Positions 33,569-56,628 are shown, counted from the stretch's first letter. The stretch is DNA of 64,000 nucleotides from Nitrosopumilaceae archaeon (GCA_965214835.1 CBDCCK010000002.1:3072001-3136000); one strand, 5' to 3'. Numbers and translations: made by a program. The notes: generated from the letters alone by a model not told the origin.

Positions 33569-36500
33569 CTACCCGGTGTAGGTGATCTTGTAGTATATTC
33601 TGGAGGGCTGATCATCCTTGATTACAGACACGTCAAATGCGCCCATGGGCAACGGCTCGCCATCCAGTGCGGGCACAATTGAGAACTTTTCGAGTTTGGC
33701 ATCAGGCCCGCTGTACCGCACCATATACTGCGAGTCATCAAACGTCACAGTGGTAGATATGGCACCCGGGGCGCGGGTGGATTCGGATACCAGGCAGCCG
33801 GGGGCCTGGCCTATGACACAGGCCCCGCCAGGAGAATGCACCTGAAAGTTGACTGCCGGCTCCTCTCCCCTGGAGGGGGTGATCAGCATGCCGGAGAGCA
33901 CCCTGGGGATCAGCTCAAGTCCCCCGGAGGTCTTTGCCTCTGGCGCAATCGACACGCTTGAGTCAGGTATGCGGCTTGCCTTTTCGATTATTCTGGCGGG
34001 ACCGGGTTCGGGTTTTTCGGCCACGTCAAATGTCACGGACTTGGTATCAAAGCCGGCATCCACAACAATCTCATAAGAGCCGACGCTGTCGGTTTCGGGG
34101 ATGGCGTATGTGTGCGTAAATGCGGCAAGTGGATCCGGCTTCAGAATAGATATGGGACCGGCATGTCTTCCACAGTAAAACGATCCGCAGTAGACTTCAT
34201 GGTCGGATTGCTTGATCACACTGATGGCAAACTGCCCCAGATGCACTATCTTGCTTGGCCGTCCATCCAAAGTCAGGACGTCGCCGGGGTTGTAGGAGTC
34301 CTTGTCCAGGGTCAGGATCAACTCCGGATCCTCGCCGCCCTGAAGATAGCTTTCGGCCACCGAGAAACTCGTTTCTGCCCTCGCGTCATTATAGGATGCA
34401 CGAACCTTGAAGGCTCCCTCATGAAACAAAGAAGGAAGCAGATCAAACGCAGTTGAATAGTATCCGCCCTGATCAGGATAAACGGTCGCAGTGTGAATTG
34501 GGTTCAGGGGTACTCTGGTTGGCATGACCTCTACTGTAACCAACTCGGGAATGCCCAAGCCGTCATGAGTGGCGCCGCGCGGTACTACATATCCGGAAAC
34601 ATAAAGCTTGTCACCTGCCAGATAGACGGACTGGCCGGCGTCTACGGTGATGGGATCCCGATTCAGGGTGTCAGTCTCGGGATTTGCAGATACCTTAAAG
34701 GGCAGATTGGTGCGGATCCCTTCAGCCTCCAGGCCGATGCGATAAACCCCGAGATTGCCAGACTGGGCCGCCCGCTCATTGTCGGCACCGGGTACGACTG
34801 CCCGAGCCGGCGTATTCCAGCTCCAACTAAATGCGCCGCCATCCAGGCTTGCCTCAAACTTGTCGGTATCGCCGTCTGGCTTGTAGAGTGTGATTTGTAC
34901 GCTTCCGCCGCCTGCCGCCCGGATCCCAAGGCTTCCAGACAGTGTCAGCGTCTCTCCCAAGCCGTAGACCTCCTTGTCTAAAGATGCGTCAAGCCCAGTG
35001 CTTCCAGTGTCGGCAGGATCAACAACGGCAAATGAGGTCTGAGACTCGAATTTGTCATGCTGGGCAAGCACGGTATACACGCCCTCAGTGAAAAAGCTGC
35101 GGGTTATCTCGCTGTCAACTGAAAAGACTCCGGCCGGATCAGGTATGGCAGTAAAGTAGAGATCGATTCTGCTGTAAACGCTCCCTGTCAAGTCCTCAGG
35201 GCCCCCCACAAATGACAGTATCCTGCCACCAGAGTCCCTTATTTCAATATGTACGGGGTCGGCCTCAAAGGTACCCTGATAGTCCATTATAAGGCCAGAT
35301 ATCTTCAGGGGATCCCCGATGCCGTAGGATGCCTTGTCCACGGATACGATGAACGGATCGGTAACCTCAACGAATGTACCCGGATCCTCAACTATTGCAA
35401 ACTTGGTTGTAAACGTCCCAATCTCTCCGGATACTGTCACGCGATACTCGCCAAAGCTGGCAAAAGAGTCAGGAATTGGGACGCCATAGGAAAACGTTCC
35501 GTCGCCCTCCAGCCTAAGGGTGTCTAGAACCTTCAGTCCGGTGCCTCCGGCGGTGCCTGGCGCCAGGCTTGCAGAGCGCAGAATCTCAAGGGACAGCGCC
35601 GGGACGTGGTACATGTTTGAGCGTCCAGATATTTCCACGGTATCCCCCGGCCGGTAGACAGGCCTGTCGGTCTCTAGGGATACTATTGACGGATCCTTTT
35701 CGTCAGGGATCACCGAGAAGTAATGTTCTGCGTCCTGGGAGGAATACTCGGCCGCTATCTGATATGTGCCATAGACTGGAGACACGGTATCGATGAATAG
35801 CTCGGTGACAAAGTGGGACTGAGCCTCGCCGCCAGTGTTTGCACCGGGGCGTGGGAACAGAGTGCCCTCCTCAACGACGCTGCCGCCAGGATCCACTATG
35901 TTGAACCTTAGCCCCGCATATGGAACCTCCTCGGTTGTGGTAGCCGAGATTGTTGCAGTCTGGCCCGGAACATAAGAGTCAGAGTCCGTCTGGATTGAAA
36001 GCACGCCGGACTGCCTCTCGTGGACTGTAACTGCCGGGTGCCCTACAGAAAACTGCGCAGTGCCTATTTCGCCGGAATATTCTGCAGTGATGTTATAGGC
36101 TCCCTGCTTGACTCCCATGACCTCCTGCAGGGCCAGGGTTGTGGAGAACTCCAAAGAGGCGCCAGGGTACAGGGTTACTGTGCTTTGATAGTCCGGGCCG
36201 TCAACGGTAATCAAAATGAACTCCGGCAAAAAGGTGGGCTTTTCAACAAACACCCTCTCAGATACCGTGCCGGAGATGATGGCAGTCTCGCCAAGCACGT
36301 AGGAGGTCCGGTCAGAGCCGACGGTGATCAGGACGGGGGTTGGCTTAAAGACGGCCTCAACACTGCCGTTTGCTACCCCGGCAGTCGAGGTGGCAAAGAC
36401 CCAGTCAGAGGTAGAGTCGGAGTCCAAGCCGTCATAGACTCGCTGCCAGGAGCCATAACCGTCGACGGTGTCATACAGTGCGGGGGTCTTGTCGACAACG

Positions 36501-37230: not shown

Positions 37231-37380
37231 AGGACAGACCTGCGAATTTGATAAAAATCTATGCCGGAACTCAGAGCCATAAAGCGTTACTTCACCAAAA
37301 AGTCATTACTCTAACTCTTCTTCATCGTCCAGGCAGTACAGCATGCCCGGGCCGGGATAATAATTCTTTTTGGAGGGGCC

Positions 37381-38657
37381 CAGCTAAGTGAAAAGTACCC
37401 CAGATCCGGCGTCATGGAGGGGGCTTGGGCTCCCTGAGATACACCGCCATGCCCTCCTTGAACACCGGGCATTGTCATGACGTTTTGCACCCCGGATCCC
37501 TCGACAGAGCAGTGCCCTGGCAGTTATCCACTCGTTGAACAGTATCATCGAGTAGTAAAAGCACAGGCATCCTAGCGGCTAGGTCGACGGTCCGGGTCTT
37601 GGCCCTGCATTCTGTCTTGGCGTATCCTGTCTCGATTCCCCACCTTGAAGAGTACGACTCGATCCTGATCCCGGGCCGGTTCGCTGCAAACCCGATGAAC
37701 TTTTTCTCCGGCCTGTCCTCCTTTGATGTACCTACGGGCTTGCCGTCATCCCCGGGCTTTTTTCTCTCCGTTATTACAATCGAATACGTGGCAAAAGCCG
37801 TGCCGTTCTCGATTATATTCCTGGATGCCCCGGGCCTCTTATCGTCATCAAACTCGTTGAGTGCTGCGACTATATTGCCCGTGTTCATGCACGGCATCAG
37901 GAACTTGACATTTCTTTTCTGCAGCATGGCAATCACCTCAACTGAGAAGAACCCGCGGCCAGACAACAGGAGGCGCGCCTTGATGCCGGCCCGCTCAAGC
38001 CGGCCAAGGATCAAACCGGCAGATTCAGGCACGGAACCGGGCCTTTTTACGTGCAGCACGCCCAGTGTCAGGCCCAGCCCGTCGTCGACGCACTGTACGG
38101 TGACGTACCGCTCGGCGTATGTCGTCCCGTCCTTTTTCTTCTGACGCGACAGGTTCCCGTCGGGCCTTCTGTCATAGCGGGAGATCTTGTGCATGTCCAT
38201 TGCTATTGTCAGCCCGCACTTTGGAATCCTTCCGGCCCTGCTTAACCTTTCACGCTGCCGTTTTATCTGCGCCTCAAAGGCCTCCTGTGCGGCCTCCGAG
38301 GTGGTCGCCTTGATCCTGTAGGCGTGCCACCGGGCAGAGGAACCGGTGCCGCTTGTACGCGTCGTGGCGTTGATGCACCCGCCCACCGATGCGTCCATGA
38401 GGGCGCCGCGCATCATGCCGCGGTTCAGGTCGTCGATCCCGTATATGGCGTTGTGTTTCCCGGACATTCTGACGCAGGAAAGCATTCCTTGTGTCCTCTA
38501 ACATATTGGTATATGCGTGGGTTGCCTTTAAGATCGCGACACTGTACGGCTTTTTGTTTGCTCAACGAAAACCACGGGGCCGCACCCCAATTGATCTGTT
38601 TGCATCTCCCAGTGTTGTCAGGATGGTCTAAATTCCTTGATTTTCTGCCTGGCTGGC
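37381..38657 (-). mobile_element. ISH3-family element with degenerate transposase (37475-38485)
   Basis: End cagctaagtgaaaagtacccca; AMDMH..RYD; LSGRGFFS (catalytic D lost); YSSRWGIETGY; other end truncated. Confidence 0.87.
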
Positions 38658-43939: not shown

Positions 43940-44294
43940 GTCTGCCCAGGTTCCAGCATTCTTCTACAACATTGAGGTACGGCGATTCTCTTGGGATCAT
44001 CGTCGGCTTGATGTTGGGATGGCCCGTCAGGATGCTGTACTTTTACCATTCAACGGTACTGTTCAACGAGTGGATAATTGCCAGGGCGCTGCTCTGCGAT
44101 AGATCCGGGGTGCAGAACGTCATGACGATGCCCGGTGTTCAAGGAGGGTATGACGATCGATATCATGGAGTCCAAACCTCAAACAAGTTTTTTACCCTGC
44201 CCTGCCAACTCTATAACGGAGGGTATGACGATCGATATCATGGAGTCCAAACCTCCCCCATGACGCCGGATTTGGGATACTTTTCACTTAGCTG
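43940..44294 (+). mobile_element. ISH3-family 3' remnant with terminal inverted repeat
   Basis: RMLYFYHSTVLFNEWIIARALL; ends gatacttttcacttagctg. Confidence 0.8.
44143..44255. repeat. Isolated repeat-spacer-repeat unit 1 (38/37/38 bp)
   Basis: ggagggtatgacgatcgatatcatggagtccaaacctc at 44143-44180 and 44218-44255. Confidence 0.95.
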
Positions 44295-44419
44295 GGGCCG
44301 TCCAGGCAGATGCGCTCAAAAATAGAGCAGGGCAGAAGCGGGCAAGAGGAGCTACTCATTGTGCACAGCTGCAAGAAAGGCAGCGAATCCATTCACGCCT
44401 AGCTTGGCCAAAGGCAGGA

Positions 44420-44493
44420 TGGGATTGGCAGGATTTGAACCTGCGACCCCTGGTACCCAAAACCAGGATCATGCCAAGCTAGACCACAATCCC
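44420..44493 (-). tRNA. tRNA-Pro(UGG)
   Basis: GGGATTG/CAATCCC acceptor stem; CTGGT-TTTGGGT-ACCAG anticodon arm; GCAGG-TTCAAAT-CCTGC T arm. Confidence 0.96.
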
Positions 44494-44793
44494 CAGATTA
44501 CACAGAATCATGGGCCCCAATTTAAGCCTGACACAGTGGTTGCAGGTGCACACTCCCAATCCCGCCTCGCCGTACCTCCATGGCCCTGCACGCAGAACCC
44601 TGCATGGCAGAACCACGTGAAACAGCGACCGCGGTGAGTAGCAAGCACACCTTCAGATGCTGCGACGCGCAAGGCCACGTCTCCCCAGTGGCCATGCAAG
44701 GTCACAGCTACATGCGAGCTCATGCCTAGCTGGCCGAGGATGGGTGCCCGTACACCGGCAGATGATGATTTTAAATAGCAACGCAGCTGAGGC

Positions 44794-45693
44794 GTGTCGT
44801 TGGAAGTAGACGACTATGTCAAGGCAGGAAGGATTGCCGGCCAGGTAAGGGAGGCTGCCAGAGGCAGAAACTGGGTCGGAAAAACGGTTTATGAAATCTG
44901 CCAGGAGATCGAGGGCCAGATTAAAGGCATGGGGGCAAGGTGCGCATTCCCGGTAAACACAAGCATCAACGAGGTTGCAGCGCACTATACTGCAGAGCCA
45001 AACGATGAGCTGACGATACGCGAGGATGATCTGGTCAAGATTGATCTGGGCGCACAGGTCAACGGCTGGATTGCAGATACGGCAGTTACCGTAAACTATG
45101 ATCCCCGGTATGACGGCCTAGTCCGGGCGGCAGAGGAGGCATTGAGCAGTGCGATGGCGCAGGTCAGGGAGGGTGTAAAGGCAAGCGACATCGGAAGGAC
45201 GATAGAGAAGACGATCAAGCAGTTGGGATACACGCCAATAGTGAACCTGAGCGGGCACTCGCTTGGGCAGTACACCATCCATGCAGGCAAGTCCATACCA
45301 AACATCTGGTCAATAGGATCGTTCTCACTGTCTGGCAGGTCGGCATATGCGTGCGAGCCCTTTGTTACGACCAGCCAGGGACTGGGATTTGTCAAGGAGG
45401 GGAAGACAAGGAATATCTTCGCCCTGGTCTCAAGGAAGAGGACAAAGAACGAGGAGGCCGACAGGCTGTTGGAGTTTATCTGGGATAACTTCAACATGCT
45501 GCCATTTGCACTGAGGTGGATAGTCGAGGAATACGAGGAGGGAAAGGCAAGGGAGCTCCTCGAGGTTCTGGTTAGGAAAAAGGCAGTCCAGGCGTATCCG
45601 GTGCTAGTCGAGGGCAACGGCCAAAGGGTGGCACAGGCAGAGCACACCTTCATTCCAAACGAGGCGGGTGCCCTGGTTACAACGGCGGCATGA
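44794..45693 (+). CDS. map: Methionine aminopeptidase type II
   Basis: AFPVN.SINEVAAHYT, KIDLGA, IADTA, NLSGH, EPF, AQAEHT motifs. Confidence 0.96.
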   Translation: MSLEVDDYVKAGRIAGQVREAARGRNWVGKTVYEICQEIEGQIKGMGARCAFPVNTSINEVAAHYTAEPNDELTIREDDLVKIDLGAQVNGWIADTAVTVNYDPRYDGLVRAAEEALSSAMAQVREGVKASDIGRTIEKTIKQLGYTPIVNLSGHSLGQYTIHAGKSIPNIWSIGSFSLSGRSAYACEPFVTTSQGLGFVKEGKTRNIFALVSRKRTKNEEADRLLEFIWDNFNMLPFALRWIVEEYEEGKARELLEVLVRKKAVQAYPVLVEGNGQRVAQAEHTFIPNEAGALVTTAA

Positions 45694-45873
45694 CTATTGC
45701 CTGACGATCTCGCCGTAGATCCTTTCTATGTAAAAGTCGCCGCCGCAGCTGCACGGGCCTGCCCTCGCAAAGACGGTGTCTCCCCGCCGGTATTTCCTTT
45801 TGGTTGATTTTTCACAAGAGTCGCATCCTTCAACGGCATACGCTACGGTGATCTCTTTTTTAGAAAATATCAT
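45694..45873 (-). CDS. Small zinc-finger protein (59 aa)
   Basis: Translated by hand: MIFSKKEITVAYAVEGCDSC..KRKYRRGD.VF...PCSCGG..YIERIYGE; start overlaps the DUF1512 stop. Confidence 0.75.
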   Translation of the reverse strand: MIFSKKEITVAYAVEGCDSCEKSTKRKYRRGDTVFARAGPCSCGGDFYIERIYGEIVRQ

Positions 45874-46991
45874 TGTGGTACGCCCATCGTATTGCCCACG
45901 CCGATTATGAGTACCGTGTTTGCAGGCTCGGTGTTGTTTTTGATCAGATCATAGACGCGTCCCCTAGCCTCATCGGCCTTCTCGGCAATGTCACGGGTCA
46001 TCAGGGTTATGGCCTCCTTTATGGACTGCTTTACAATCACAGCAAATATTGGAATGCCGCATCTTGCTGCGACCTCCTCGATTTGAAACCTCTCGGTTCC
46101 AACTCCCCCTATTGCCGCCCCAAATCCTTGTGCTATTCCCGCAGAGTCCTCGCCCTCAAACTTTAGTGCGGCATCGACCATGATTATCGCATCAAGCTTT
46201 GTCTCCTTTGCAATTGACTCTAGCGCGTCCGCGGGCCTGCCAACGGTCGACGACGGCCCCTCTGCCTTTAACAGAATCAGCCTTCTGCCTTCATACTCGG
46301 TGCTACTTGAGACGGTTTGGAATGCAATCTCCTTTTTTATAGTATTTAACATCATTTTTCCAACGACCATCGGGCCTATGCCATCCCCAATTGGCTGGCT
46401 CTGCCTAAAAGCAGGGACGGCCTCCTTTAATGCCGTAGCCTCCTCCATTATAAAAGGAAGCATCATCTGCAGCGGCAGGATTAGCGGGTAGTTGTTTTGC
46501 TTTTTTGCAGTAAGGAATAGGTGGTTGACTATCTTGTACAGCAGCTGCAGGGAGGTTGCGATTTCCAGCAGGGTCTGGATTTTGTTTAGTTCGGCATCCG
46601 GGATGTCTGGCATGATTGACTTGATGTTGCCCCGGGTATAGTCCTCCCTGGAGTGGATTGTATGCCTGATTTTTGGGATTATCCCATTTGGATCCAGGTC
46701 AACGGGTGGAATTGTAAAGTACTCCAGAAACTGGTCGATTCTGGCAGAGGGCTCCAGTTTTGGATTGCAGTTTTTCTTCACATAGTCAATCAGCTCGGCC
46801 CTAGTCTCGGCCCGGTACGAGTCAAGCATCCTTATGCTTTTTTTGATCTGGCCGGAGGTAATCTGCAGCTGAATGCGCTGCCCGTAAAAAATGAAGATGA
46901 CCACCGGCAGGATCCAGATAAGCATCATGAAGAGGCTGGTGTCGTCATTGAACCCAAAAAACTCCCCAGCGTCAAAGTCCGTAAAGTTCAC
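45870..46991 (-). CDS. DUF1512 family protein
   Basis: PVDLDPNGII, PIGDGIGP, VDAALKFEGE, IGVGNTMGV motifs. Confidence 0.88.
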   Translation of the reverse strand: MNFTDFDAGEFFGFNDDTSLFMMLIWILPVVIFIFYGQRIQLQITSGQIKKSIRMLDSYRAETRAELIDYVKKNCNPKLEPSARIDQFLEYFTIPPVDLDPNGIIPKIRHTIHSREDYTRGNIKSIMPDIPDAELNKIQTLLEIATSLQLLYKIVNHLFLTAKKQNNYPLILPLQMMLPFIMEEATALKEAVPAFRQSQPIGDGIGPMVVGKMMLNTIKKEIAFQTVSSSTEYEGRRLILLKAEGPSSTVGRPADALESIAKETKLDAIIMVDAALKFEGEDSAGIAQGFGAAIGGVGTERFQIEEVAARCGIPIFAVIVKQSIKEAITLMTRDIAEKADEARGRVYDLIKNNTEPANTVLIIGVGNTMGVPQ

Positions 46992-47131
46992 TAATTACGG
47001 CGATCAGATATTGCAAATTAAATCATTCGCTATGCGGTCAGAGGGTGGCCTCAGGCACAAAAGGCGCCGTGCCCATTCCAGGCAATTAGCGAGTGCTTTT
47101 ATTATAGTTAATATACGAAAAATCGGAAAAC

Positions 47132-47692
47132 ATGCCACAAACAAAACCCATAGTCAGCGTTGAAAACGTAGTAGCCTCTGCCTCGGTGGACCAAAAGATG
47201 GATTTGAACGAGATTACACGTACCTTTCCAGACGTGGAATATCACCCGGATCAGTTTCCCGGGCTGGTCTTTAGACTGAAGAGTCCAAAGACTGCGACAC
47301 TGATTTTCACATCAGGCAAGATGGTATGCACTGGTTCAAAGTCAGAGGAGATGGCAAGAAAGGCCGTAAAGACGGTTGTTCAAAAGCTTAGAAAGGGCGG
47401 CATCAAGGTCAAAAAGGACGCGGTCGTGGAGATCCAGAACATAGTTGCATCGATCAACCTGGGCGGAAAGATCCACCTAGAGCAGGCTGCCAGGACGCTC
47501 CCAAGAAGCATGTACGAGCCCGAGCAGTTTCCGGGCCTGATTCACAGAATGCTTGACCCAAAGACGGTAATCCTGCTGTTCTCCTCGGGAAAGCTAGTCT
47601 GCACCGGGGCCAAAAAAGAGCCCGACGTTTACAGATCCGTCAACAACCTGCATGCCCTTTTAGAAGAGAAGGATCTCATGATCTATGATTGA
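47132..47692 (+). CDS. tbp: TATA-box binding protein
   Basis: Two ENVVAS/QNIVAS..YxPxQFPGL..LIFTSGKMVCTG repeats. Confidence 0.98.
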   Translation: MPQTKPIVSVENVVASASVDQKMDLNEITRTFPDVEYHPDQFPGLVFRLKSPKTATLIFTSGKMVCTGSKSEEMARKAVKTVVQKLRKGGIKVKKDAVVEIQNIVASINLGGKIHLEQAARTLPRSMYEPEQFPGLIHRMLDPKTVILLFSSGKLVCTGAKKEPDVYRSVNNLHALLEEKDLMIYD

Positions 47693-48452
47693 CTCATAGG
47701 CCACCTTTCACCTGTTTTTGTTGATCCCAGTGGATCGCACAGGCATCATGGAGACAAGATGATTATACTGCAGGATAGTCCAGCCATCAAGGCAAAAGCA
47801 GTCGGGAGTTCAGGGCTTCCGAGCTTGCGCTGATCAGCTCACTGCCGGACAGTGGTGAGGCTAGGCCTCACAGCACATAGGAGCTAGACGTGCAGGCCTC
47901 ATCAAGGACTATAGCTTCAGACAGGCCGTGGGTAAACCAAAGGCAGTGCCTGATCTCGGTACCGCATAACAAGCACGGGCTGCCAGTCGGTGAAAAAAGC
48001 ATGGTCGTTGTCTTTTCTGGCAAGAGCCGGCCCCGGGAGCCGGACACGCTGATGATGCCTACCATATGGTTTGTGACTATGCGCAAAATCTGCATGGCTG
48101 CAAGGACGGTTTCGGTGGAAGGATGCACGGCACGGATGCGGCGCGGGGGTGTTCGGAACAGTGGCAAGCCAGAGTGTGCTTTGATCTGCAAAACAGCATG
48201 ATGCCCCACCGGCATCAGGAGTGAGCATCATCACGTGGCTTGACGGCCTTATTCCAGGCAAGGCATGGGGCGGTGATATGGACGGCATTGGCCTGCTCGG
48301 GAAGATTGTAGGCCTGCCCGGCAGTACAGCACTGCCAGCTGCACGGTTCAAAAAATCGCGGAGATCATCAAGGCAGACATTTGCACGGTGGAGCTTGCGG
48401 CGGGCCGCCGAGTCCCCGGCAGAGCTCAAGGAGAATCCCGGCACCAGATATC

Positions 48453-48791
48453 CTATCTTATCCTTGTCCCGGCAGGAACGTCCCCATGCACGGTCAGCCA
48501 AAACGGTCTGTCGTCGACATCAGCTGCTAGCAGCATCGCATCGGACTCGACTCCGGCCACCCTTTTGGGCTCTAGGTTTGCAACTGCGATGACCGTCCTG
48601 CCCACAAGATCCTCGGGCTCAAAGAACTGGGCCCCGCCAATTATGACGGTTCTCTCCTCGCCCCCAAGATCGATTGTTCCCCTGACTATCCTAGTCTTGT
48701 CCGGGATGGGCTCTGCAGATTTTATTTTTGCCACGCGAAGATCCAGCCTGGCAAAGTCATCATATGTTATGGCAGGCATGTCATGCGTCAA
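48453..48791 (-). CDS. tRNA-binding OB-fold protein (Trbp111/CsaA-like)
   Basis: YDDFARLDLRVAKI, ANLEPKRVAGVESDAMLLAA. Confidence 0.9.
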   Translation of the reverse strand: MTHDMPAITYDDFARLDLRVAKIKSAEPIPDKTRIVRGTIDLGGEERTVIIGGAQFFEPEDLVGRTVIAVANLEPKRVAGVESDAMLLAADVDDRPFWLTVHGDVPAGTRIR

Positions 48792-48818
48792 TATCCTCCC
48801 GTTAAAATGAATTTCGGC

Positions 48819-49016
48819 TCATTCCAGCTCGGGCCTGGTGGCGCCCGAGGTCTCAATTTCGTATCGTAGTGCGGCAGGCAGATCCTCATATTTTTTATTG
48901 GCAAGAACCGCAATTTGATCCACGGGCACGCCTGCCTTCCTTAGTAGCATGCCCCGCTGATGGGCATAGGCGTTCTTCCAAAAGTTCGAGGCATCAAAGG
49001 TCTGAATTTTTGGCAT
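48819..49016 (-). CDS. Hypothetical small protein
   Basis: MPKIQTFDASNFWKNAYAHQRG...; start trimmed to avoid overlap with the divergent SRPBCC gene. Confidence 0.6.
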   Translation of the reverse strand: MPKIQTFDASNFWKNAYAHQRGMLLRKAGVPVDQIAVLANKKYEDLPAALRYEIETSGATRPELE

Positions 49017-49083
49017 GTATTTTGAGGGCCTCATGCAGTCATGACGCAAATACAATATATTTAGTGTGTGAGGAAGCCCAGTC

Positions 49084-49500
49084 ATGGCCCGAATCGAGGT
49101 CTCAATGGACATCAACGCGCCTCTAGACAGAGTGTGGGGGATAGTATCGGACATAGACAACGAGCCGGAGTTCTGGAAGGGTACCAAGGAGATCAGGAAC
49201 ATATCAAGGCAGGACGGAAAGATAACTCGGGAGATCACTATTGCGTTTAGGGATCAAAAATGCATGCAGGAGGTCACCATAGAGCCCAAAAGCAGAGTTC
49301 ATGCGGTTTTTACAAAAGGCATCATTGACGGAACCAAGACGGTGACCGTGAGGCCGGAGGGGGAAAAGATCAGGCTGGAGGTAGTATGGGATATAAAGCT
49401 TGCAGGGATGATGGGGATGTTTACGGGAATGATAAAAAAGCACATCAGGGGCGGTACGGAGCAGGCCGTCGACGGCATCAGAAGGGAAGCAGAGAGTTAG
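49084..49500 (+). CDS. SRPBCC/polyketide cyclase family protein
   Basis: IEVSMDINAPLDRVWGIVSD...PEFW motif. Confidence 0.85.
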   Translation: MARIEVSMDINAPLDRVWGIVSDIDNEPEFWKGTKEIRNISRQDGKITREITIAFRDQKCMQEVTIEPKSRVHAVFTKGIIDGTKTVTVRPEGEKIRLEVVWDIKLAGMMGMFTGMIKKHIRGGTEQAVDGIRREAES

Positions 49501-49503
49501 CCC

Positions 49504-50712
49504 ATGTCGCTACTGGTAGAGGCAGTCAACTATTCCCTGGCCGCAATACTGATGGGCATAGTCGGGGCATGGCTTGTTCTTTTAAGATCTATGCTGGCGT
49601 CTTTCAGGTACACGCCATACCTGGACGGATTTCAAAAAACCAGCCACGGCGCTCCAATGGTGTCAGTAATCCTGCCTGCAAGAAACGAGGAGGGGTTTAT
49701 CGCAAAATGTCTTGGATCCCTAGTCGAGCAGGATTATGAGAACTATGAAGTCATAGCAGTTGATGACTCCTCAGAGGACGATACAGGGGACATCATCAGG
49801 GAATATGCCCGGAAAGACAGCAGGGTCGTACACGTAAGGGCAGGGCAAAAACCGGACGGATGGATGGGCAAGAACTGGGCATGCATCGAGGGCTACAAGA
49901 GGGCCGCCGGGGAGCTGCTGCTGTTTACAGACTCGGACACAAGGCACGAGCCAAACGTTGTTTCGCTGGCAGTAGGGCACCTGCTGTCCTCAAAGCTAGA
50001 CGCGCTGACTGCAATGCCAAAAATGCTGTCGCTGGATTTCTGGACGGGGATTACCCTGCCGGTGATCTCCGTGTTTTTGCATACGAGGTTTTCGGCATTA
50101 AGGGTAAATGATCCTGCAAAAAACACGGGGTATTTTTTTGGCAGTTTTTTCATCATAAGGAGGGAGGTATATGAGGGGGTCGGAACCCACGAGGGCGTAA
50201 GGCAGGAGATCATCGAGGACGGGGCGCTGGGAAGAAAGGTCAAAGAGGCAGGCCATAAAATGAAAATGGTAAGGGGGGACCACCTGATCGACGCCGTCTG
50301 GGCAAGAGACGGGCCGACGCTTTGGAATGCCTTGAAAAGACTGATGATTCCGCTGTATCTGCAAAGCAGCACGGTTGCAGTGGGGGCGTTCCTTGCAGTC
50401 CTGTTTTTGCTCTTTATGCCGTTCCCACTGCTAGGCTATGCAGTATTGGGGTTTGACGGAGGGGCCTCATCTAGCCTGCTACTGCTGTTCTCGTCGCTTG
50501 CATCACTGGTCATTTATGCCGGGGCAGTCATCGAGTCAGCCAGGGGACTCTGCGCAAGGCTGGAATACGCCATGATGTGCCCGCTGGGGGGCCTAGTGGT
50601 AGTCTCGGGCTTTATGTCAGGACTGGTTCGTGCCAAAAGCGATGCAGCAGTTTCATGGAGGGGCAGGATATACTCCATGAAGGATCATGCCCAAAGCGCA
50701 ATCAGTGTATAA
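49504..50712 (+). CDS. GT2 family membrane glycosyltransferase
   Basis: VSVILPARNEE, VDDSSED, GWMGKNWAC, FTDSD, IIEDGALG, WRGR motifs. Confidence 0.92.
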   Translation: MSLLVEAVNYSLAAILMGIVGAWLVLLRSMLASFRYTPYLDGFQKTSHGAPMVSVILPARNEEGFIAKCLGSLVEQDYENYEVIAVDDSSEDDTGDIIREYARKDSRVVHVRAGQKPDGWMGKNWACIEGYKRAAGELLLFTDSDTRHEPNVVSLAVGHLLSSKLDALTAMPKMLSLDFWTGITLPVISVFLHTRFSALRVNDPAKNTGYFFGSFFIIRREVYEGVGTHEGVRQEIIEDGALGRKVKEAGHKMKMVRGDHLIDAVWARDGPTLWNALKRLMIPLYLQSSTVAVGAFLAVLFLLFMPFPLLGYAVLGFDGGASSSLLLLFSSLASLVIYAGAVIESARGLCARLEYAMMCPLGGLVVVSGFMSGLVRAKSDAAVSWRGRIYSMKDHAQSAISV

Positions 50713-51671
50713 CCACGACGCTGTCCAGTCATCCCCAGGAACTCCCACAGCCCCAAGCAATTCAGGCTGGGCTGACTGCAGATCCGCATAGTCGCCACGA
50801 GTTGGAGCTCATCAGAGAAGCGATTCGCAATTGGCAGGTTTTGACCCAATTGGGCACAAATCTGTACCTGACGGATCAAGATACGGGCAGAACCGGGTAC
50901 CAAACCATGAAGTTGATCAAGCTGACAAAGCCCACGGGCCGTCCGTATCGCCCTATGAATCGTGATCTTGGAAAAAACCCCGCCATCTGGAGACGCTTAT
51001 CCCCTGTAGGTCGGTTCTGTCAGCTCTGATATGAACTCGTCAAGCAAGCCGATCCTTGCGATTCTGCCAAAGTTGTTTCCGCCATCCGATTCGGGCCTGT
51101 CACTTATGCTCTCACGTCCCCTTGGATACGGTTCTATGCCATCAGGTGCACCTATCCTCTTATCTGCGCCGGTCTCCCTTACGTTCTGCAACCAGAAATT
51201 CCTGTACTCGCAAGAGTATCCCGCCATGTCAACGAGTGGCTTGAGTATGATCGGCTTGCCGGACGGGACGCGGGACAGCCCCATTGAACCAGCATCGCAG
51301 GATCCTTGTCCGTGCATGCGTTCCTGCTCACCCCCAGCCTAAAGATCGGCATTCCCTCCTTGGCCAGTAGACCTTATGCGTAATCGGCACAAATCAAAAA
51401 AACCATGCAGTTTTTGCGTCATTTTTGGCAAGTCCGCAAAGGCCCAATGCACGTGCACGGCCACAGCTCCTTGCCGGCCAAGCAAAAATCACAGCAACAT
51501 GCGAGTTCATGTCTGATTGACTAAGGGGGTGACTTTACGCTGCCATGTAAGGGTCTGCTTGCAAGCTAAGTGAAATGTAAGTGGGCTGCTGTTTTTGTCT
51601 TGCTAGAGGCGTCATGCCTCTTGCCAAGTTTCTGTTTTTGCTCGATTTTTTGGTACACTTCACTTAATCTG

Positions 51672-51748
51672 CCTCCGGAAGATATGGCGTTGGGGGCACG
51701 GTGATCAAGGCCCCTGCAGGCAGTGTAGCCTAGGGGGCAAACTCTTAC
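51672..51748 (-). mobile_element. MITE family A copy 2, truncated by an ISH3-type mini-element (about 51562-51671)
   Basis: Reverse strand gtaagagtttgccccctaggctacactgc...tcttccggag; neighbour has gctaagtgaaatgta/tacacttcacttaa ends. Confidence 0.65.
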
Positions 51749-52027
51749 CGCCGTCACGTCCCTGTTCACCTTGGACTCGTCAAAATCGGCTGCGGCCACG
51801 TCTCCGCCCTCCTAGGAATCATACCTGCCATCGGCCTTCTCGTACATGGATAACGGCTTCATGCCCCATTGTCCCGGCGCCTTGTCTATTATCTCACGCA
51901 ACTCATCCAGCTGGGGAGTGCCCTCGATATCGAGCCATCCACGGATATGGTTGAAGCACCGGGTCTTGTCGCCCCCATGCCTGACAAGCTCCACCAAGGT
52001 TCTGTGCAATCTTCGACACCTGAAATA

Positions 52028-52156
52028 GGGGCTGTCGCCTAATTCCACCTACCTGACTCAACCTGCGCGTTTTTCTGAATTTCCGCCATTTTTGCACGCC
52101 TGATCCACATAGCGTCTCAGCGGTTTTCGGGAATTCTGGCGAATTAGGCGAGACAT
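52028..52156. mobile_element. MITE family B copy
   Basis: ggggctgtcgcctaattc...gaattaggcga. Confidence 0.8.
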
Positions 52157-52576
52157 CTATGTTAAAAGCATCCGTCGTAGAAACGACGATGTTCCTAGCT
52201 TCTTCTGATCCATGCCTAGCTGATCATGTCCCACTTTGTAGCTAACGCTGGTTTACATGATGCAGCCGCGCTTGCCTTGTCCGTGCGGTTGTGCCATATC
52301 CTCCCAGATAATAGGTGGGTGGCGGGGCAAGAGGTGAGTCACCGCCGACGGTTTCTTTCCTCCTAGTCTTGATGAACCAGAAGCTGTAGTCATTCACTAG
52401 TGCGAAGCACAGGAACGCCGCAGCTCGGATCCCCATTCGGCTACGAGTGCGCGAAGCACATGCATAATGAGGGGTTGATCCATCACCCTGGCTACGGCGA
52501 GGGCATTTTTATCATGTGTTCAACAAACTATATTTTTGAGAACATCTTTAAAGCACACATGTTCGTACAAAGGGTG

Positions 52577-53053
52577 ATGGATAGTACCACGAGCAGATCT
52601 GTAGTTGATTTGGGACTGGTATTACGAAATCTGGACAACTTTAGCATGTCCTCTTTTGATGGACGTCTGAAACTGCAAAAAACCGTATACCTGCTACAGT
52701 CATATGGGATTTATCTTGGATATGGATTTGCTTGGTACCTGCGTGGACCATACTCCACAAGACTAACAAAGGACGGATTCGTACTACAAGCAATTTACAA
52801 ACAGGTTCCAAAGGGCTCATTTAAGGAAAAAAACATTCAGAAACGATTCAGTGAATTTCTAAGATTCATGGAAGACAAAAAGGATGATCCGGGCAGGCTG
52901 GAAATACTGGCATCAATTCACTTTCTCAAAAAAGTTTACAAGGGTATGACCAAGACAGAGATACTCAAACGTGTCAAAGAAAAACAGTCTTACTTTACAG
53001 CGAAGCAGTGCAGGGACGGATGGGATGAGCTAAAGCAGGCAGGCATGATCTAG
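52577..53053 (+). CDS. SocA/Panacea (DUF4065)-like protein
   Basis: RLKLQKTVYLLQ, F.WYLRGPYS, LEILASIHF motifs; start trimmed to ATG 52577. Confidence 0.7.
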   Translation: MDSTTSRSVVDLGLVLRNLDNFSMSSFDGRLKLQKTVYLLQSYGIYLGYGFAWYLRGPYSTRLTKDGFVLQAIYKQVPKGSFKEKNIQKRFSEFLRFMEDKKDDPGRLEILASIHFLKKVYKGMTKTEILKRVKEKQSYFTAKQCRDGWDELKQAGMI

Positions 53054-53407
53054 ATGTCGCTAAAACCCAGGCACAGAACAACGGTTTTCCCACAAACAAG
53101 GGTCACCAGAAACTTTCCAAAAAACATCTTTGAGCTTCAAAAATCATTCAACAGCATCGACGATCTTGAAAAATTCCTCTTTCTGGCAGACGCCACCTGC
53201 CGAGACAGGCAGGCTGCAAGCATAGAAAAGGTACATGTGGATATTTTTAAAGAATCCACGGTTGCAAGGACAAAAGTGGCATCCTCACTCAGAGAGACAC
53301 TTGAAATTCTCTTGGACGAGGATCTGGTGAGGCAAATCAAAAAAAGTGAAAAAGACGTCAAGGAGGGCAGGCTGGTTCCGTGGAACAAGGTAAGGGCAAA
53401 TGTGTAA
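53054..53407 (+). CDS. Type II antitoxin (YefM/RelB-like C-terminus)
   Basis: SLRETLEILLDEDLVRQIKKSEKDVKEGRLVPW motif; overlaps the toxin gene. Confidence 0.72.
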   Translation: MSLKPRHRTTVFPQTRVTRNFPKNIFELQKSFNSIDDLEKFLFLADATCRDRQAASIEKVHVDIFKESTVARTKVASSLRETLEILLDEDLVRQIKKSEKDVKEGRLVPWNKVRANV

Positions 53408-53679
53408 CATATGCAGTCCGGTTAACCGCTAACTGCCAAAGACAATACAGTAAATTCAAGAAAAAAGGAGACAGGCAGCTCCTAAAAAGACTAACTTATG
53501 CAATTAATGATCTGAGAACAAACCCTCATAGCGGAAAAGACCTGGTAGGTGGCCTTAGAGGACTAAAATCTTCACGTATTGGAGGTTACAGAATAATCTA
53601 TAGCGTAAATGAAAGCCCAGAGTGCCTAGTCATTGTACAGTGCATAGGATCAAGGGACGCAATATACAACCTGTCATAG
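53380..53679 (+). CDS. RelE/ParE family toxin
   Basis: YAVRLT...L.TNPHSGKDLVGGLRGLKSSRIGGYRIIYSV...IGSRDAIY; start uncertain. Confidence 0.88.
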   Translation: MEQGKGKCVTYAVRLTANCQRQYSKFKKKGDRQLLKRLTYAINDLRTNPHSGKDLVGGLRGLKSSRIGGYRIIYSVNESPECLVIVQCIGSRDAIYNLS

Positions 53680-53694
53680 TGCCTAGCTTGCAGT

Positions 53695-53806
53695 GACGAC
53701 TAAAGCAGTGGGCGCTATATGAAATCTTGCCATGCCAAACATTCCTGCCAGGCGCGCCTCGTTGTAGGAGACGACTAAAGCAGTGGGCGCTATATGAAAT
53801 CTTGCC
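53695..53806. repeat. Isolated repeat-spacer-repeat unit 2 (37/38/37 bp)
   Basis: gacgactaaagcagtgggcgctatatgaaatcttgcc at 53695-53731 and 53770-53806. Confidence 0.95.
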
Positions 53807-54359
53807 GGTATCCTAGCATGCAGTCACGCCCCCATCCTTTTCCCTCATTTTTTCATGATGTATCTGTGTGGCATGTTGTGTAGGTTGAGGCCCCTTCTGC
53901 TGAAATTTTGCCCTTGCATACCGGTGAAAGGACGTGTCCTTCCATGCGTGGTTTTTGATTATCGCACCTGGCTGACTTTCATGTACGGGTACGCCGAGTA
54001 TGCAAAGACTAGAAACCCCGTTGGCACTCATGCTGCTGAAAAACTCCTTGTATTCGGCCCCGGCAGGTTAGCCGCTTTTTCACTCTCCTGCGACTCGAGC
54101 TCCCCTGCCACGTTCTGCCCTCAGTCGACCTTCTTCCATGAGCAGCCGCCAAAACCCAGACATTCTCCGGATGCCATGCCCTCTCGTCTGCTGTCTCGCT
54201 GTACGGGCCGTAGCTGCCAGCATCACAGCTGTGCCTGTCCTCTGACTTTCCAGCCTGTCCGCGAGCAGAGACATCATTTTTTGCAGCCCTGCCCCTGACC
54301 GGCTCGTCATTGGTGCTTACCAGCATAATCATCCCACCTTTGCAGGCCATCTGCGCCGT

Positions 54360-55262
54360 TGATCGCTTTTTCCAAGCCTGTCATCCCTTCATCCCGGATG
54401 TCCTGATGTGTGGGCTGTGATGCCTGTGATTTTGATCCCCTGCTGCGGCAAAGTCGGGCGATATCACAGCTTCTGGCCCGAATGCCGCTGCCGGGCTCCT
54501 TTATCGCTCTGCCAAGATCGCATTTACCACGCCGTCCTGCCCCGGCCTTGAGACGATCCTACATTTTCCATCCTCTGTCTCAAGGACTGCGCCCCTTGTA
54601 ATCACGCCGCGGCGCCTGTAGTCGTTGTTTGTCGGGTTCAAGACCTTGAGAATCTTTGTCTTTACCCTGCCGTCTCCGGTGACTAGGTTTGCAAAGTCAT
54701 GTCCCGTCACCTCCCCGTGTTTTGCGTGGCTCCAGCTCCTGTACTTGCGGAGGCCGAATCCCGTCGAGTCGCCGTGCAGATCCGCTATGCGCTCGCCGTC
54801 TGACATGGCCAGCATGACCTCGTCCACAAAGTCCTTGCCCATGTCCCAGAGCATCTTCATCCTGTTGTGCAGCATCGACTTGGAGTGTGCATATCTCAGG
54901 CCACCCCGCCTGAGATCGTCAGGGTGTCTCCAGATGCGTGACCATCCTCCTGTAGGACAGGCCGTTTTCGATCCTGAGGATCGCAATGCGTATGGCAGAC
55001 CACGCAAGGCCGGCATCGATTCCCGTCTCGGCCGCCATCTTCCTGGCCACCCTGCGTACGATCTTTCTGATTCTTCATCATCCTCTTCTTGCGGGAGCTC
55101 TCCTGCCTGCGCTTTTGCTCATAGAGGCGGTTGTAGTCCGTGTTCTTTCTGTCGTTGCTCATTGGAATATCCGGGATCGGCTGATCAAAAGCGTTTTCGG
55201 TGCCGTGCGCCCGTGATCTACAAGCCTGGCGGTCATTTTGCGGAAATTTTTTGGACAACCCC
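54360..55262 (-). mobile_element. IS5-family remnant carrying an rps8e fragment
   Basis: End ggggttgtccaaaaaa; DYNRLYEQKR, HGDSTGFG..Y..W.HAKHG motifs. Confidence 0.7.
54501..54698 (-). pseudogene. rps8e: Ribosomal protein S8e C-terminal fragment
   Basis: FANL...TKILKVLNPTNNDYRRRGVITRGAVLETEDGKCRIVSRPGQDGVVNAIL. Confidence 0.9.
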
Positions 55263-55395
55263 CATATTTCTTGGCATAATCGGCCTTCATTGCCTCACTG
55301 GCGTCCCTGTCGAGATAAAGTGTAATACGGATGGGATCCACCTTGGCCGCCACCATAGCAATACTTTTTAGAGAAAAATTAAGAGTCTGAGATCT

Positions 55396-56628
55396 ATGGA
55401 AAGATCCGGCGTGTTGATTGGGGGGGTGTTTAGCGTGGCAGTCGCAATAGTTGCCATCACGGTACTGATGAGTCCCCCCTTGGAGATGCAGTCCAAGGTG
55501 GCAGTTGATGAGGAAATTATCAAGGCGGGGAACGAGACCGTAGCCAAGATCAACACGACGGAACAGGTGGCAGTTGATGAGGAAATTATCAAGGCGGGGA
55601 TGTCGCCCAATTCGCTTCAGGCCGCCTCCGCCGGCGAGGCACAAATCGACATGCTCAGTGAGCTGTCCCTGGTGGAGGTTTTTAGGATGTCAGAGCCGGG
55701 GGTGGTCCAGATTAACGTAAGAAAGGGGATCTCCGACATTTCCGGGATCGGCCTGGGCTCGGGTTTTGTCTATGATGTCGAGGGTCACATAATTACCAAC
55801 GCACACGTGGTTAGAAACGCAGAGGATGTCATCATTACGTTTTTGGATGGACGCTCGTACATCGGACAGGTGATTGGGGCAGACATGGATACCGATTTGG
55901 CGGTGATCAAGTCCGATGCAAACCGCACCACGCTGCACCCACTGCCAATCGGAGACTCGTCAAGGCTCAAAATTGGAGAGCAGATAGCAGCAATAGGAAA
56001 CCCGTTTGGGCTGTCGGGCTCGATGACGTCAGGAATAATAAGCCAGATCGGGCGCCTTCTTCCCCAGGCAACAGGATTCTCAATACCAGACATAATACAG
56101 ACGGATGCGGCCATAAACCCAGGCAACTCAGGCGGTCCTCTAATCAACATGATGGGGGAGGTGGTAGGAGTCAATACGGCAATACAGTCCGCCACGGGCG
56201 AGTTCACCGGAATTGGGTTTGCAGTGCCATCAAACACAATCTCAAAAATTGTCCCGGTGCTGATTTCTGAGGGGGAATACCAGCACCCGTGGCTTGGAGT
56301 CAGGGGAGCCGATATCGGTCCAGAATACGCAGATGTCCTGAACCTTTTGGATGCAAGGGGGTTTCTGATAATGGATGTAATAGACGACAGTCCGGCATTC
56401 AAGGCAGGACTGCAGGGAGCAACGGACACAGTCCAAAAGGACGGGCAGGTCTACAGGATAGGCGGGGATATCGTGCTGTCGGTGGACGGCAAGGAGGTAA
56501 GAAAGATTGACGACATCCTGCTACACCTGCAAAGGGAAAAGGCTGTCGGGGACACGCTGGAACTAGAGGTTCTTCGAGACGGCAGAACCTCCAGCCTGGC
56601 AATCATGCTAGAAGAGCGGCCAGAGTAA
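55396..56628 (+). CDS. htrA: HtrA/DegP-like membrane-anchored serine protease with PDZ domain
   Basis: GSGF, ITNAHVV, DLAVIK, AIGNPFGL, IQTDAAINPGNSGGPL; PDZ. Confidence 0.93.
   Translation: MERSGVLIGGVFSVAVAIVAITVLMSPPLEMQSKVAVDEEIIKAGNETVAKINTTEQVAVDEEIIKAGMSPNSLQAASAGEAQIDMLSELSLVEVFRMSEPGVVQINVRKGISDISGIGLGSGFVYDVEGHIITNAHVVRNAEDVIITFLDGRSYIGQVIGADMDTDLAVIKSDANRTTLHPLPIGDSSRLKIGEQIAAIGNPFGLSGSMTSGIISQIGRLLPQATGFSIPDIIQTDAAINPGNSGGPLINMMGEVVGVNTAIQSATGEFTGIGFAVPSNTISKIVPVLISEGEYQHPWLGVRGADIGPEYADVLNLLDARGFLIMDVIDDSPAFKAGLQGATDTVQKDGQVYRIGGDIVLSVDGKEVRKIDDILLHLQREKAVGDTLELEVLRDGRTSSLAIMLEERPE
55496..55600. repeat. Isolated repeat-spacer-repeat unit 3 (36/33/36 bp), in frame within htrA
   Basis: aggtggcagttgatgaggaaattatcaaggcgggga at 55496-55531 and 55565-55600. 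Confidence 0.95.

Follow-up and report, generated by a model that had tools for sequence, protein, structure and literature searches.

How do short stretches of DNA come to be framed by exact copies of ordinary chromosomal sequence, in units with the dimensions of a CRISPR repeat and spacer? The question is raised by three repeat-insert-repeat units in a 64,000-nt stretch of the genome of an ammonia-oxidising Nitrosopumilaceae archaeon (C2:3072001-3136000, the window; plain positions below are counted from its first nucleotide). In the original prediction, made from the sequence of the window alone, the units were read as off-target insertions by a Cas1-type integrase encoded elsewhere, or else by an unknown ruler-based integrase. 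Off-target spacer integration giving rise to neo-CRISPR loci was reportedly described for the type I-E system of E. coli by Nivala, Shipman and Church in 2018 (Nat Microbiol 3:310). According to passages of a preprint that cites that work, such integration was shown in E. coli overproducing Cas1-Cas2, the evidence from two other species being circumstantial only. Here we propose that the three units are very probably the result of off-target (non-canonical) integration by the organism's own type I-G adaptation module, acting as the putative catalyst. Approximately 40-60 scars scattered over the genome, some of them in protein-coding genes, appear to have been left by this resident CRISPR spacer integrase.

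Three repeat-insert-repeat units in the window

All three units were recovered exactly as originally described, with repeats that are 100% identical. In unit 1, two target copies of 38 nt (44143..44180 and 44218..44255, spacing 75) enclose a spacer-sized insert of 37 nt (44181..44217), and in unit 3 two copies of 36 nt (55496..55531 and 55565..55600, spacing 69) enclose an insert of 33 nt (55532..55564); both units are given without strand. Unit 2, on the + strand, consists of target copies of 37 nt (53695..53731 and 53770..53806, spacing 75) around a 38-nt insert (53732..53769) that is an exact copy of C2:1227786-1227823. The orientation of unit 2 was set by the TTC found immediately before this source, which puts its first target copy on the leader side. 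Exact repeats of 36-38 nt at a fixed spacing cannot have arisen by chance in 3.2 Mb. The units are absent from the output of Tandem Repeats Finder, as expected, because each comprises only 1.5 copies. For the unit 1 insert nothing beyond a 17-mer was found elsewhere in the genome and for the unit 3 insert no source was found in the genome, and neither insert has an exact match in viral/metagenome contigs.

The contexts assigned to the units at the outset (IS remnant, intergenic DNA and htrA coding sequence) proved roughly right. Unit 1 lies within an open frame of 146 codons that matches no Pfam family and is part of a repeated element with paralogs. Unit 2 follows a ParE-like toxin ORF (53380..53679, + strand; PF05016, E = 1.2e-07) that ends 16 nt before it. 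Unit 3 is held within the ORF of an HtrA-like serine protease (55396..56628, + strand; 410 aa, Trypsin_2 and PDZ), to which it contributes 69 nt, or 23 codons, in frame.

Units of the same kind across the genome

When the whole 3.22-Mb genome (2 contigs) was scanned for isolated direct-repeat pairs, 116 pairs were obtained, with peaks of repeat length at 36 (n=15) and 37 nt (n=11), of gap at 36 (n=15), 37 (n=10) and 38 nt (n=7), and of period at 72 nt (n=22). Rather than being broad and unpeaked, the lengths thus form a sharp genome-wide peak at repeats of 36-37 bp and inserts of 36-38 bp. Two sets of units were used, one of 42 high-confidence units and one of 64 curated units, each unit having its own repeat and its own insert. 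The exact repeats of the 42 high-confidence units range from 31 to 42 nt (36 nt in 15 units, 37 nt in 11), with gaps of 36 (15), 37 (7) and 38 nt (5) and periods of 72 (16), 73 (9) and 75 nt (7). Repeat and insert each vary by 1-3 nt among units, and unit 2332658 combines a duplication of 38-39 nt with an insert of 34-35 nt, as judged by the extent of its protospacer match. The inserts have no similarity to one another, apart from those carried by paralogous copies belonging to a single repeated family. A repeated element holds one unit in 4 identical copies, and a second unit occurs in 2 copies, so that units are evidently copied along with the DNA that carries them. Scar density is higher in the half of the chromosome that contains the cas locus.

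Open frames of 150 codons or more span 30 units, of which 23 have a period that is a multiple of 3, versus 13 of 30 other units; for comparison, 62 of 147 repeat-plus-spacer periods in the native CRISPR array are such multiples. The excess of multiples of three in open frames is a sign of selection.

The search for insert sources and a shared PAM, which had been suggested as a check, traced several inserts to distant parts of the chromosome, where TTC/TTN usually flanks the copied DNA. The inserts of at least 9 units are exact or near-exact copies of chromosomal DNA elsewhere, and a protospacer-like match elsewhere (filled paralogs left out) was found for 14 of the 64 units, no source being found for the other 50. 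TTN is strictly adjacent to 7 of the 14 matched sources, compared with 11.9% for random 36-mers, and in 5 of these 7 it is TTC; three units (2814926, 1652870 and 2927710) have diverged protospacer matches without TTN. Inserts of self DNA make up approximately one fifth of units, versus 0-1 of 147 spacers in the native array, and a hot spot of self-derived inserts adjoins orc1/cdc6.

The resident type I-G system and alternative explanations

A Cas1-family gene encoded outside the window, which the original prediction required, is present. The genome carries one type I-G CRISPR-Cas locus, approximately 590 kb from the window, in which an adaptation module consisting of a Cas4g/Cas1g fusion and Cas2 (C2:2480012-2482006) adjoins an array of 148 repeats. 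The fusion matches NF049935 at 754.8 bits (cut-off 560) and Cas2 matches TIGR01573 at 32.1 bits (cut-off 24.5). In genome-wide profile searches one Cas1 (298 bits) and one Cas2 (59 bits) were matched, neighbours of each other and of the array; since the sole Cas1 match lies at C2:2480729-2481571, the window itself holds none, as had been stated. After the array come Cas3g, Cas7g (Csb1) and Csb2, all over cut-off (TIGR02621, 630.3 bits, cut-off 400; TIGR02570, 140.7, cut-off 38; TIGR02165, 126.5, cut-off 45), and a 271-aa ORF that matches TIGR04106 (Cas8g2) at 100.8 bits, under the cut-off of 125.

The repeats of the native array are 36 nt long and its 147 spacers 35-40 nt (36 nt, 45 spacers; 37 nt, 54; 38 nt, 18; 39 nt, 16; 35 nt, 7; 40 nt, 4), a geometry that the units match; of the window inserts, those of 37 and 38 nt lie within the native spacer range and that of 33 nt falls outside it. 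Only one native spacer has a target, located on contig C1, and there TTC lies on the leader-proximal side. Aligned in register with the leader end and the repeat, the target sites agree at 15.78 of 46 positions versus 14.10 +/- 0.41 for matched random sites, a score reached by 1 of 2000 controls, which suggests that they resemble the leader-repeat junction slightly more than random DNA does. An expectation-maximisation search gave no target motif consistent with the orientation that the PAM defines, agreement being found in 5 of 8 cases.

Among the alternatives, another mobile element or integrase (a casposase, a transposase or an unknown ruler-type enzyme) producing a 36-bp target duplication survives best, and even so it is very unlikely. 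Many transposase genes are present in the genome (DDE_Tnp_4, IS66 and IS110 families), and the role of Cas1 as catalyst is one that we infer. However, inserts lacking any common sequence argue against an element with conserved ends, there is a single Cas1-family match in the genome, and the units agree with the resident type I-G system in repeat length, insert length and PAM. There is no need to invoke an unknown ruler-based integrase.

It is highly improbable that the units are absent from cells and were generated as artefacts at short repeats during assembly or polishing. The method by which the two contigs were assembled is not stated, and a contig from sequencing run X1 joins 55495 to 55565, omitting the 69 nt of unit 3 (depth 34.6, no mismatch), while another contig of this run ends 17 nt past the first copy of unit 2 and does not enter the insert; this evidence is at the level of contigs, in which a loop of the assembly graph may have been passed over, and not of raw reads. 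In run X2, from a different study, the contigs stop at 53724 and 55525 and start again at 53777 and 55571, precisely the points at which 31-letter words would fork, given reads that contain the repeat-insert-repeat structure. Moreover, an artefact would not copy distant DNA lying beside TTC, reproduce the native CRISPR geometry, favour multiples of three in open frames, or turn up in the same form in all 4 copies of one repeated element.

Just as improbable is a local tandem duplication, or replication slippage, whose length of approximately 72 bp is a coincidence. Tandem repeats are very abundant in the genome, with periods that include 42, 84 and 156 nt, and at C2:2832639 (a locus outside the 64, dropped by the filter for repeats shorter than the period) the same insert is present twice, in the order repeat-insert-repeat-insert-repeat. 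A tandem duplication, however, consists of two full copies of a local unit, whereas empty sites show the insert to be non-local. Such empty alleles, whose existence the original prediction had implied, carry the target once and without the insert in paralogs, in a sister species and in the run X1 contig. For 32 of the 64 units, paralogs could be aligned through both junctions with a reconstruction of the empty allele (in one example with 99.3% identity over 280 nt and no gap). The element containing unit 1 (unit 3116139) has an empty paralog in the window itself, with the target once and no insert (37371..37573, - strand; C2:3109573-3109371; 84.7% over 203 nt, 2 gaps). In the sister-species genome G002 the target is found once at 4 of 4 informative sites, 5 more sites being uninformative; at the site of unit 2 (C44:54-192) both flanks and a single 37-nt target (130-166) are present, without the insert. 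Slippage also gives no ground for a peak at 36 + 36 or for inserts that copy distant loci in at least 9 units. With peaked lengths, a resident Cas1 and inserts that are not the native DNA of larger tandem duplications, the reading of the units as Cas1-type off-target integration is supported.

Least probable of all is an origin of the units from true CRISPR arrays that have decayed until two repeats are left of each. Decay or movement of arrays in this genome is indicated by a small second array, of 8 diverged repeats (C2:135821-136367), but the repeats of the units all differ, are ordinary local DNA (coding and repeated-element sequence included), are single-copy in empty paralogs and orthologs, and have an identity to the native repeat that is barely over random.

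Proposed mechanism and relation to known systems

The comparisons above point to natural off-target spacer integration on an unusual scale, with Cas4/1-Cas2 as the probable catalyst. A prespacer of approximately 36-38 nt would be chosen beside a TTC/TTN PAM, the host chromosome being one of its sources. Bypassing the leader-repeat junction, the integrase would join it, in two steps of presumed order, to ordinary DNA at staggered positions separated by approximately 36 bp. The approximately 36 bp between the joints would then be duplicated by gap repair to give target-insert-target. We propose that the integrase measures out the stagger and that this accounts for its agreement with the native repeat length. 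Since the new repeats are not those of a CRISPR array, guide-RNA processing should bypass the inserts, and self-derived inserts would therefore be tolerated; scars would last where they are neutral or in frame.

The units share with the E. coli neo-CRISPR loci a spacer-sized insert outside the array, a target duplication of one repeat length, and Cas1-Cas2 as the proposed catalyst. Unlike the E. coli events, those described here are natural, taking place without over-expressed Cas1-Cas2; they belong to an archaeal type I-G system with a Cas4-Cas1 fusion, 36-nt repeats and a TTC PAM, and not to type I-E; and dozens are fixed in one genome, many of them coding and in frame. In contrast to growing neo-CRISPR arrays they are one-spacer scars, a third repeat copy with a different insert being found in 0 of the 64 units; one locus with three repeats and two inserts occurs in another genome, G066. 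The region was not found in any RNA run. Casposons and transposons also duplicate their target through staggered joining and gap repair. These elements have conserved sequence of their own and much shorter duplications, whereas here all inserts differ and the duplication has the length of a CRISPR repeat.

In canonical type I-G adaptation, with Geobacter sulfurreducens as the model, a Cas4-Cas1 fusion acts with Cas2 and the PAM is 5'-TTN. Papers by Almendros (2019) and Hu (2021) are said to deal with type I-G adaptation. The present module resembles the canonical one in its NF049935 family, in the TT-containing PAM indicated by insert sources, and in the leader-facing PAM-proximal end (one native spacer), and differs in that its target would be ordinary chromosomal DNA weakly resembling the leader-repeat junction. 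The mechanism of the I-G Cas4 is treated in passages of PMC13748974. Parts of PMC9456107, PMC13769266 and PMC13748974 describe promiscuous integration in vitro by Cas1-Cas2 alone and a DNA-bending host protein that curbs off-target events, and name IHF, HU and archaeal histones as on-target host factors; these results were obtained in vitro with CRISPR subtypes other than the type I-G considered here. That host factors normally suppress promiscuous Cas1-Cas2 would explain how scars can arise. Ectopic spacer acquisition within CRISPR arrays of Streptococcus thermophilus, reported in a portion of PMC7999890, is likewise an integration away from the leader-proximal repeat, but it uses genuine array repeats, whereas the targets here are non-CRISPR DNA. 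In recent papers ectopic integration is described as "generally considered deleterious", and preventive host factors are being studied. No earlier report of a genome-wide natural case was found in the literature searched, most subscription journals lying outside its coverage.

In genome G004, of the same genus and with the same system, 0 units were found in the 400 kb sampled, so a type I-G system alone does not predict scars. Units of the same kind are present in a second type I-G genome, which is from another genus. As a more tentative proposal, to which we give somewhat less than even credence, the integrase may be an ongoing genome-wide insertional mutator in some type I-G ammonia-oxidising archaea, still active, with the scars forming an unselected fossil record of its captures. 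This proposal draws on sites that differ between samples of one species (as seen in contigs), on in-frame protein insertions of 23-25 codons such as that in the HtrA-like protease, and on the recurrence in the second genome.

With 40-60 apparent natural events in a wild-type type I-G system, existing sequence can address the questions of how faithful adaptation is in nature, what is captured when interference does not filter, how targets are chosen, and what the host pays. The scars also suggest how genes may be disrupted, and proteins acquire in-frame insertions, in ways that would escape ordinary annotation. If the integrase is indeed a mutator, these archaea would provide a natural system for measuring how accurate CRISPR adaptation is, what it costs and which evolutionary side-effects it has.

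Repeat pairs of one geometry in the window and across the chromosome

The three exact repeat pairs of the original prediction were found as described, with 100% identity between the two copies of each. Unit 1 (window positions 44143-44180 and 44218-44255) is composed of a 38-nt repeat and a 37-nt insert (period 75) within an open frame that belongs to a repeated element; unit 2 (53695-53731 and 53770-53806; repeat 37 nt, insert 38 nt, period 75) is located 16 nt past the end of a ParE-like toxin ORF; and unit 3 (55496-55531 and 55565-55600; repeat 36 nt, insert 33 nt, period 69) is found in frame within the gene for a Trypsin_2 plus PDZ (HtrA-like) protease. All three periods are multiples of three. 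The window also holds a 468-nt unit repeated three times (16731-18115), and tandem and dispersed repeats are extremely abundant in the genome overall; among them are many arrays with periods of 42, 84 or 156 nt within coding-like sequence, together with an array of a palindromic 24-nt motif at 34440-35700 of the large contig C2.

The assembly (3.22 Mb in two contigs, GC 52.6%, no N), of which the window is C2:3072001-3136000, is that of an archaeon, with archaeal ribosomal proteins, an archaeal proteasome and an archaeal amoA gene, the last of which marks the organism as an ammonia oxidiser. A scan with seed 14 and a maximum spacing of 400 gave 2779 pairs of exact direct repeats, among which 116 were isolated, contained a gap and had a spacing of at most 200. 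Where the original prediction called for the genome-wide length distributions, those of the 116 pairs were sharply peaked in repeat length (36 nt in 15 pairs, 37 in 11), gap (36 in 15, 37 in 10, 38 in seven) and period (72 in 22, 73 in nine, 74 in seven, 75 in nine). Exact repeat lengths fall off from 36 to 37, 38 and 39 nt (15, 11, 3 and 2), which we read as a duplication of about 36 nt extended by chance matches at its edges.

A second scan that tolerated mismatches (period 66-80, repeat 28-46 nt, native CRISPR arrays excluded) yielded 79 candidates, and 15 of these, in nine tandem or low-complexity regions, were discarded by eye to leave a curated set of 64 units, named here by their C2 positions. 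This set takes in several units from a single old repeated family (608096, 2707227, 1995601 and four copies of 1308253), which may represent a single event or a structural feature of the element, as well as weak candidates with periods of 66-68. Requiring a period of 69-79 and 31 nt or more of exact repeat, and counting identical paralogs once, gave a strict subset of 42 distinct, high-confidence units. Repeat and insert differ from unit to unit, and likeness between inserts was seen only between paralogous copies.

The resident type I-G locus

One Cas1 match and one Cas2 match were detected in the genome. The Cas1 is a 566-aa Cas4g/Cas1g fusion (NF049935, 754.8 bits against a cut-off of 560) whose gene is directly downstream of a ribosomal-protein operon, about 590 kb away from the window. 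Cas2 is followed by an array of 148 identical 36-nt repeats (C2:2482178-2492954), and past the array are found, in this order, Cas3g (630 bits), a Cas8g2-like ORF under its cut-off, Cas7g/Csb1 and Csb2, in what looks like a complete type I-G system. The 147 native spacers are mostly 36 nt (45 spacers) or 37 nt (54) in length, followed by 38 (18), 39 (16), 35 (7) and 40 nt (4). Comparison with a native array and a search for its Cas1 thus uncovered both, and the scattered units match the native array in repeat and spacer length. That the inserts are copies of array spacers was rejected: matches between inserts and native spacers did not exceed 11 nt, which is the chance level.

A second, small CRISPR array is present on the minus strand at C2:135821-136367. 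Its eight repeats fall into two variants that share about 86% identity with the main repeat, and one of its spacers occurs twice. Just upstream of the cas locus, the ORF of ribosomal protein L24 (KOW/Ribosomal_L26; C2:2475820-2477028, or L003:13320-14528 in an extracted stretch of the same genome) is 402 aa long, with repeats of 66 and 75 nt forming an extended array in its interior.

Empty target sites and the history of the units

The alternative that the inserts are simply the native sequence of larger tandem duplications was decided against by target sites without an insert. An empty allele was rebuilt for each unit from the left flank, one repeat and the right flank, and for 32 of the 64 units it aligned across both junctions to copies of the same repeated element elsewhere in the genome; gapless examples span 280 nt at 99.3% identity and 276 nt at 99.6%, and one empty paralog of unit 1 is in the window itself (37371-37573). 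In the sister species G002 (same genus, 76% complete) all four readable sites, those of unit 2, 2360350, 2814926 and 2209451, were empty and carried the target once (37, 36, 38 and 34 nt). The comparison gave no reading at five sites (unit 3, 2366624, 2369023, 2810966 and 2453978); at unit 3, contig C49 of the sister genome begins inside the variable N-terminal region. Empty alleles thus exist in paralogs and in the sister species, and the units are insertions, with an origin by tandem duplication very unlikely. At the orthologous locus of unit 2, the sister genome is missing 148 nt of the ParE-like toxin ORF (window 53471-53618) and has about 3.3 kb of additional DNA soon after the empty site.

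Part of the region is present in 13 public sequencing runs from eight studies, none listed as an RNA run, and contigs assembled from the reads of four were examined. Run X2 has contig ends at 53724 and 55525 and contig starts at 53777 and 55571, the points where 31-letter words lose uniqueness if two paths lead into a 36-37-nt repeat, and the filled form therefore appears to be present in the reads of that run. A contig of run X1, which belongs to a different study, passes directly from 55495 to 55565 (depth 34.6, no mismatches over 498 nt) and so lacks the 69 nt of unit 3. A second X1 contig reads through the first repeat of unit 2 into 17 letters differing from the insert, which fits the empty form. 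No X1 contig covers the insert of unit 3, and the bin depth equals, by our own arithmetic, that from the skipping contig alone; we take this depth as no more than consistent with an empty allele, since rare variants are lost from contigs and loops may be bypassed. Because the data are contigs, they give a strong hint, not proof, of a filled/empty polymorphism in natural populations.

For 60 distinct units we asked if the unit was spanned by an open frame of 150 codons or more. The period was a multiple of three in 23 of 30 units in such a frame compared with 13 of the 30 others, in a test that is partly circular since a frameshift shortens the frame; in the native array our own count of multiples of three was 62 of 147. 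The bias fits selection removing frameshifting insertions. One unit is shared by four identical copies of a repeated element, and another by two, so these units were copied after their formation. None of the 64 units has acquired a second, different insert. Outside this set, C2:2832639-2832822 has the order repeat-insert-repeat-insert-repeat with the same 38-nt insert twice (repeat 36 nt, period 74), an arrangement suggestive of a scar that was tandemly duplicated, possibly when its repeats recombined.

Insert sources, target choice and relation to known systems

The search of the inserts against the genome and for a shared PAM, as proposed in the original prediction, was productive. Inserts of 14 of the 64 units match the chromosome at a place other than a filled paralog, nine of them at full length with 97-100% identity and, in eight of these nine, at a single other locus; the 38-nt insert of unit 2 is identical to C2:1227786-1227823, and that of 2950434 has matches in 14 copies of a repeated element. 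TTN strictly adjoins the source in seven of the 14, versus 11.9% of random 36-mers, and in five of the seven it is TTC; two more units have TT shifted by one base beside the source, and one further unit has TTT. For the inserts of units 1 and 3, the genome search returned nothing longer than a 17-mer, and exact scans of 29-33 nt, which a source with one mismatch would escape, gave no match in viral or metagenome contigs.

About a fifth of the off-target inserts match self DNA, and the native spacers gave only chance matches of 16-17 nt to the chromosome. Such a difference would be expected if self-targeting guides are lethal from the genuine array and harmless in scars, whose flanking "repeats" presumably cannot be processed. 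Only one native spacer has a target within the assembly, at C1:6366-6401 in a gene for a 1270-aa glycosyltransferase, with TTC adjoining on the leader-proximal side. Besides transposases of the IS66 and IS110 families, the 13-kb contig C1 encodes a LamG-domain protein and a methyltransferase; it resembles a chromosomal island more closely than a virus or plasmid, and this spacer may therefore be self-targeting.

Four insert sources fall within 6.2 kb around an orc1/cdc6 gene flanked by the large and small subunits of DNA polymerase D (C2:900127-901338 and C2:900193-906410, outside the window). In archaea such a gene neighbourhood suggests a replication origin, and C2:900193-906410 looks like a prespacer hot spot at that probable origin. 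The 42 high-confidence units are unevenly spread by raw count, which may simply reflect where repeated or dispensable DNA lies: 27 are located within 2.0-3.2 Mb and 14 within 2.2-2.7 Mb; the former stretch contains the cas locus (2.48 Mb) and is opposite orc1/cdc6 (0.90 Mb).

Target sites resemble the leader end plus repeat, in register, slightly more than matched random sites do, at 15.78 versus 14.10 ± 0.41 of 46 positions (one of 2000 controls as high). There is a weak signal of G or C at the first (33/42) and last (31/42) base of the duplication. Expectation-maximisation over the 42 units with orientation as a hidden variable gave 5.98 bits of motif information versus 3.88 ± 0.15 at random sites; we claim no target-site motif, as its orientations match the PAM-defined ones in just five of eight units.

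Among 121 genomes sampled from the family, a Cas4g/Cas1g above the cut-off is encoded in 12 and any match was obtained in 47; the tallies include the unpublished genomes G090 and G104, both with sub-cut-off matches only and neither used for any other result. Four arrays read in related genomes have 36-nt repeats of one family and periods of 70-76. We sampled 400 kb each of two such type I-G genomes for units: none was detected in that of G004, from the same genus, and roughly 10-14 (repeats 30-39 nt, periods 70-73) in that of G066, from another genus (GC 71%), an approximate count read by eye in very GC-rich, repeat-rich DNA. One scattered G066 unit has an insert that includes the end of that genome's own CRISPR repeat, and about 4 kb from cas4/1 three copies of a local sequence of about 40 nt enclose two unlike inserts, each about 30 nt long, which makes this locus a candidate for a growing neo-array (loci of interest: L080:5807-5985 and L080:3240-3421 in an extracted stretch, and sample position ~110117 of its contig C1). 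The units are therefore not unique to the genome studied here, nor are they a companion of every type I-G system.

Off-target spacer integration in E. coli was reportedly described by Nivala et al. 2018, and the mechanism matches. According to papers citing Nivala et al. 2018, it happens on over-production of Cas1-Cas2, is promoted by IHF-like sites and is able to spawn new arrays, with circumstantial evidence in two other species; recent work describes Cas1-Cas2 alone as promiscuous in vitro and held back by HU or archaeal histones (PMC9456107, PMC13769266, PMC13748974). Our full-text literature search, with most subscription journals and supplements outside its coverage, returned no report of genome-wide natural off-target integration. 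That an integrase encoded elsewhere inserts short DNA across this chromosome, as originally predicted, is supported by the peaked scan, the resident system, the insert sources and the empty sites, and judged from sequence, the units are very probably best explained by off-target integration by the resident type I-G Cas4/1-Cas2. What appears to be new is the dozens of fixed events, their natural setting, the subtype, the PAM-flanked self sources, the empty alleles and the coding consequences.
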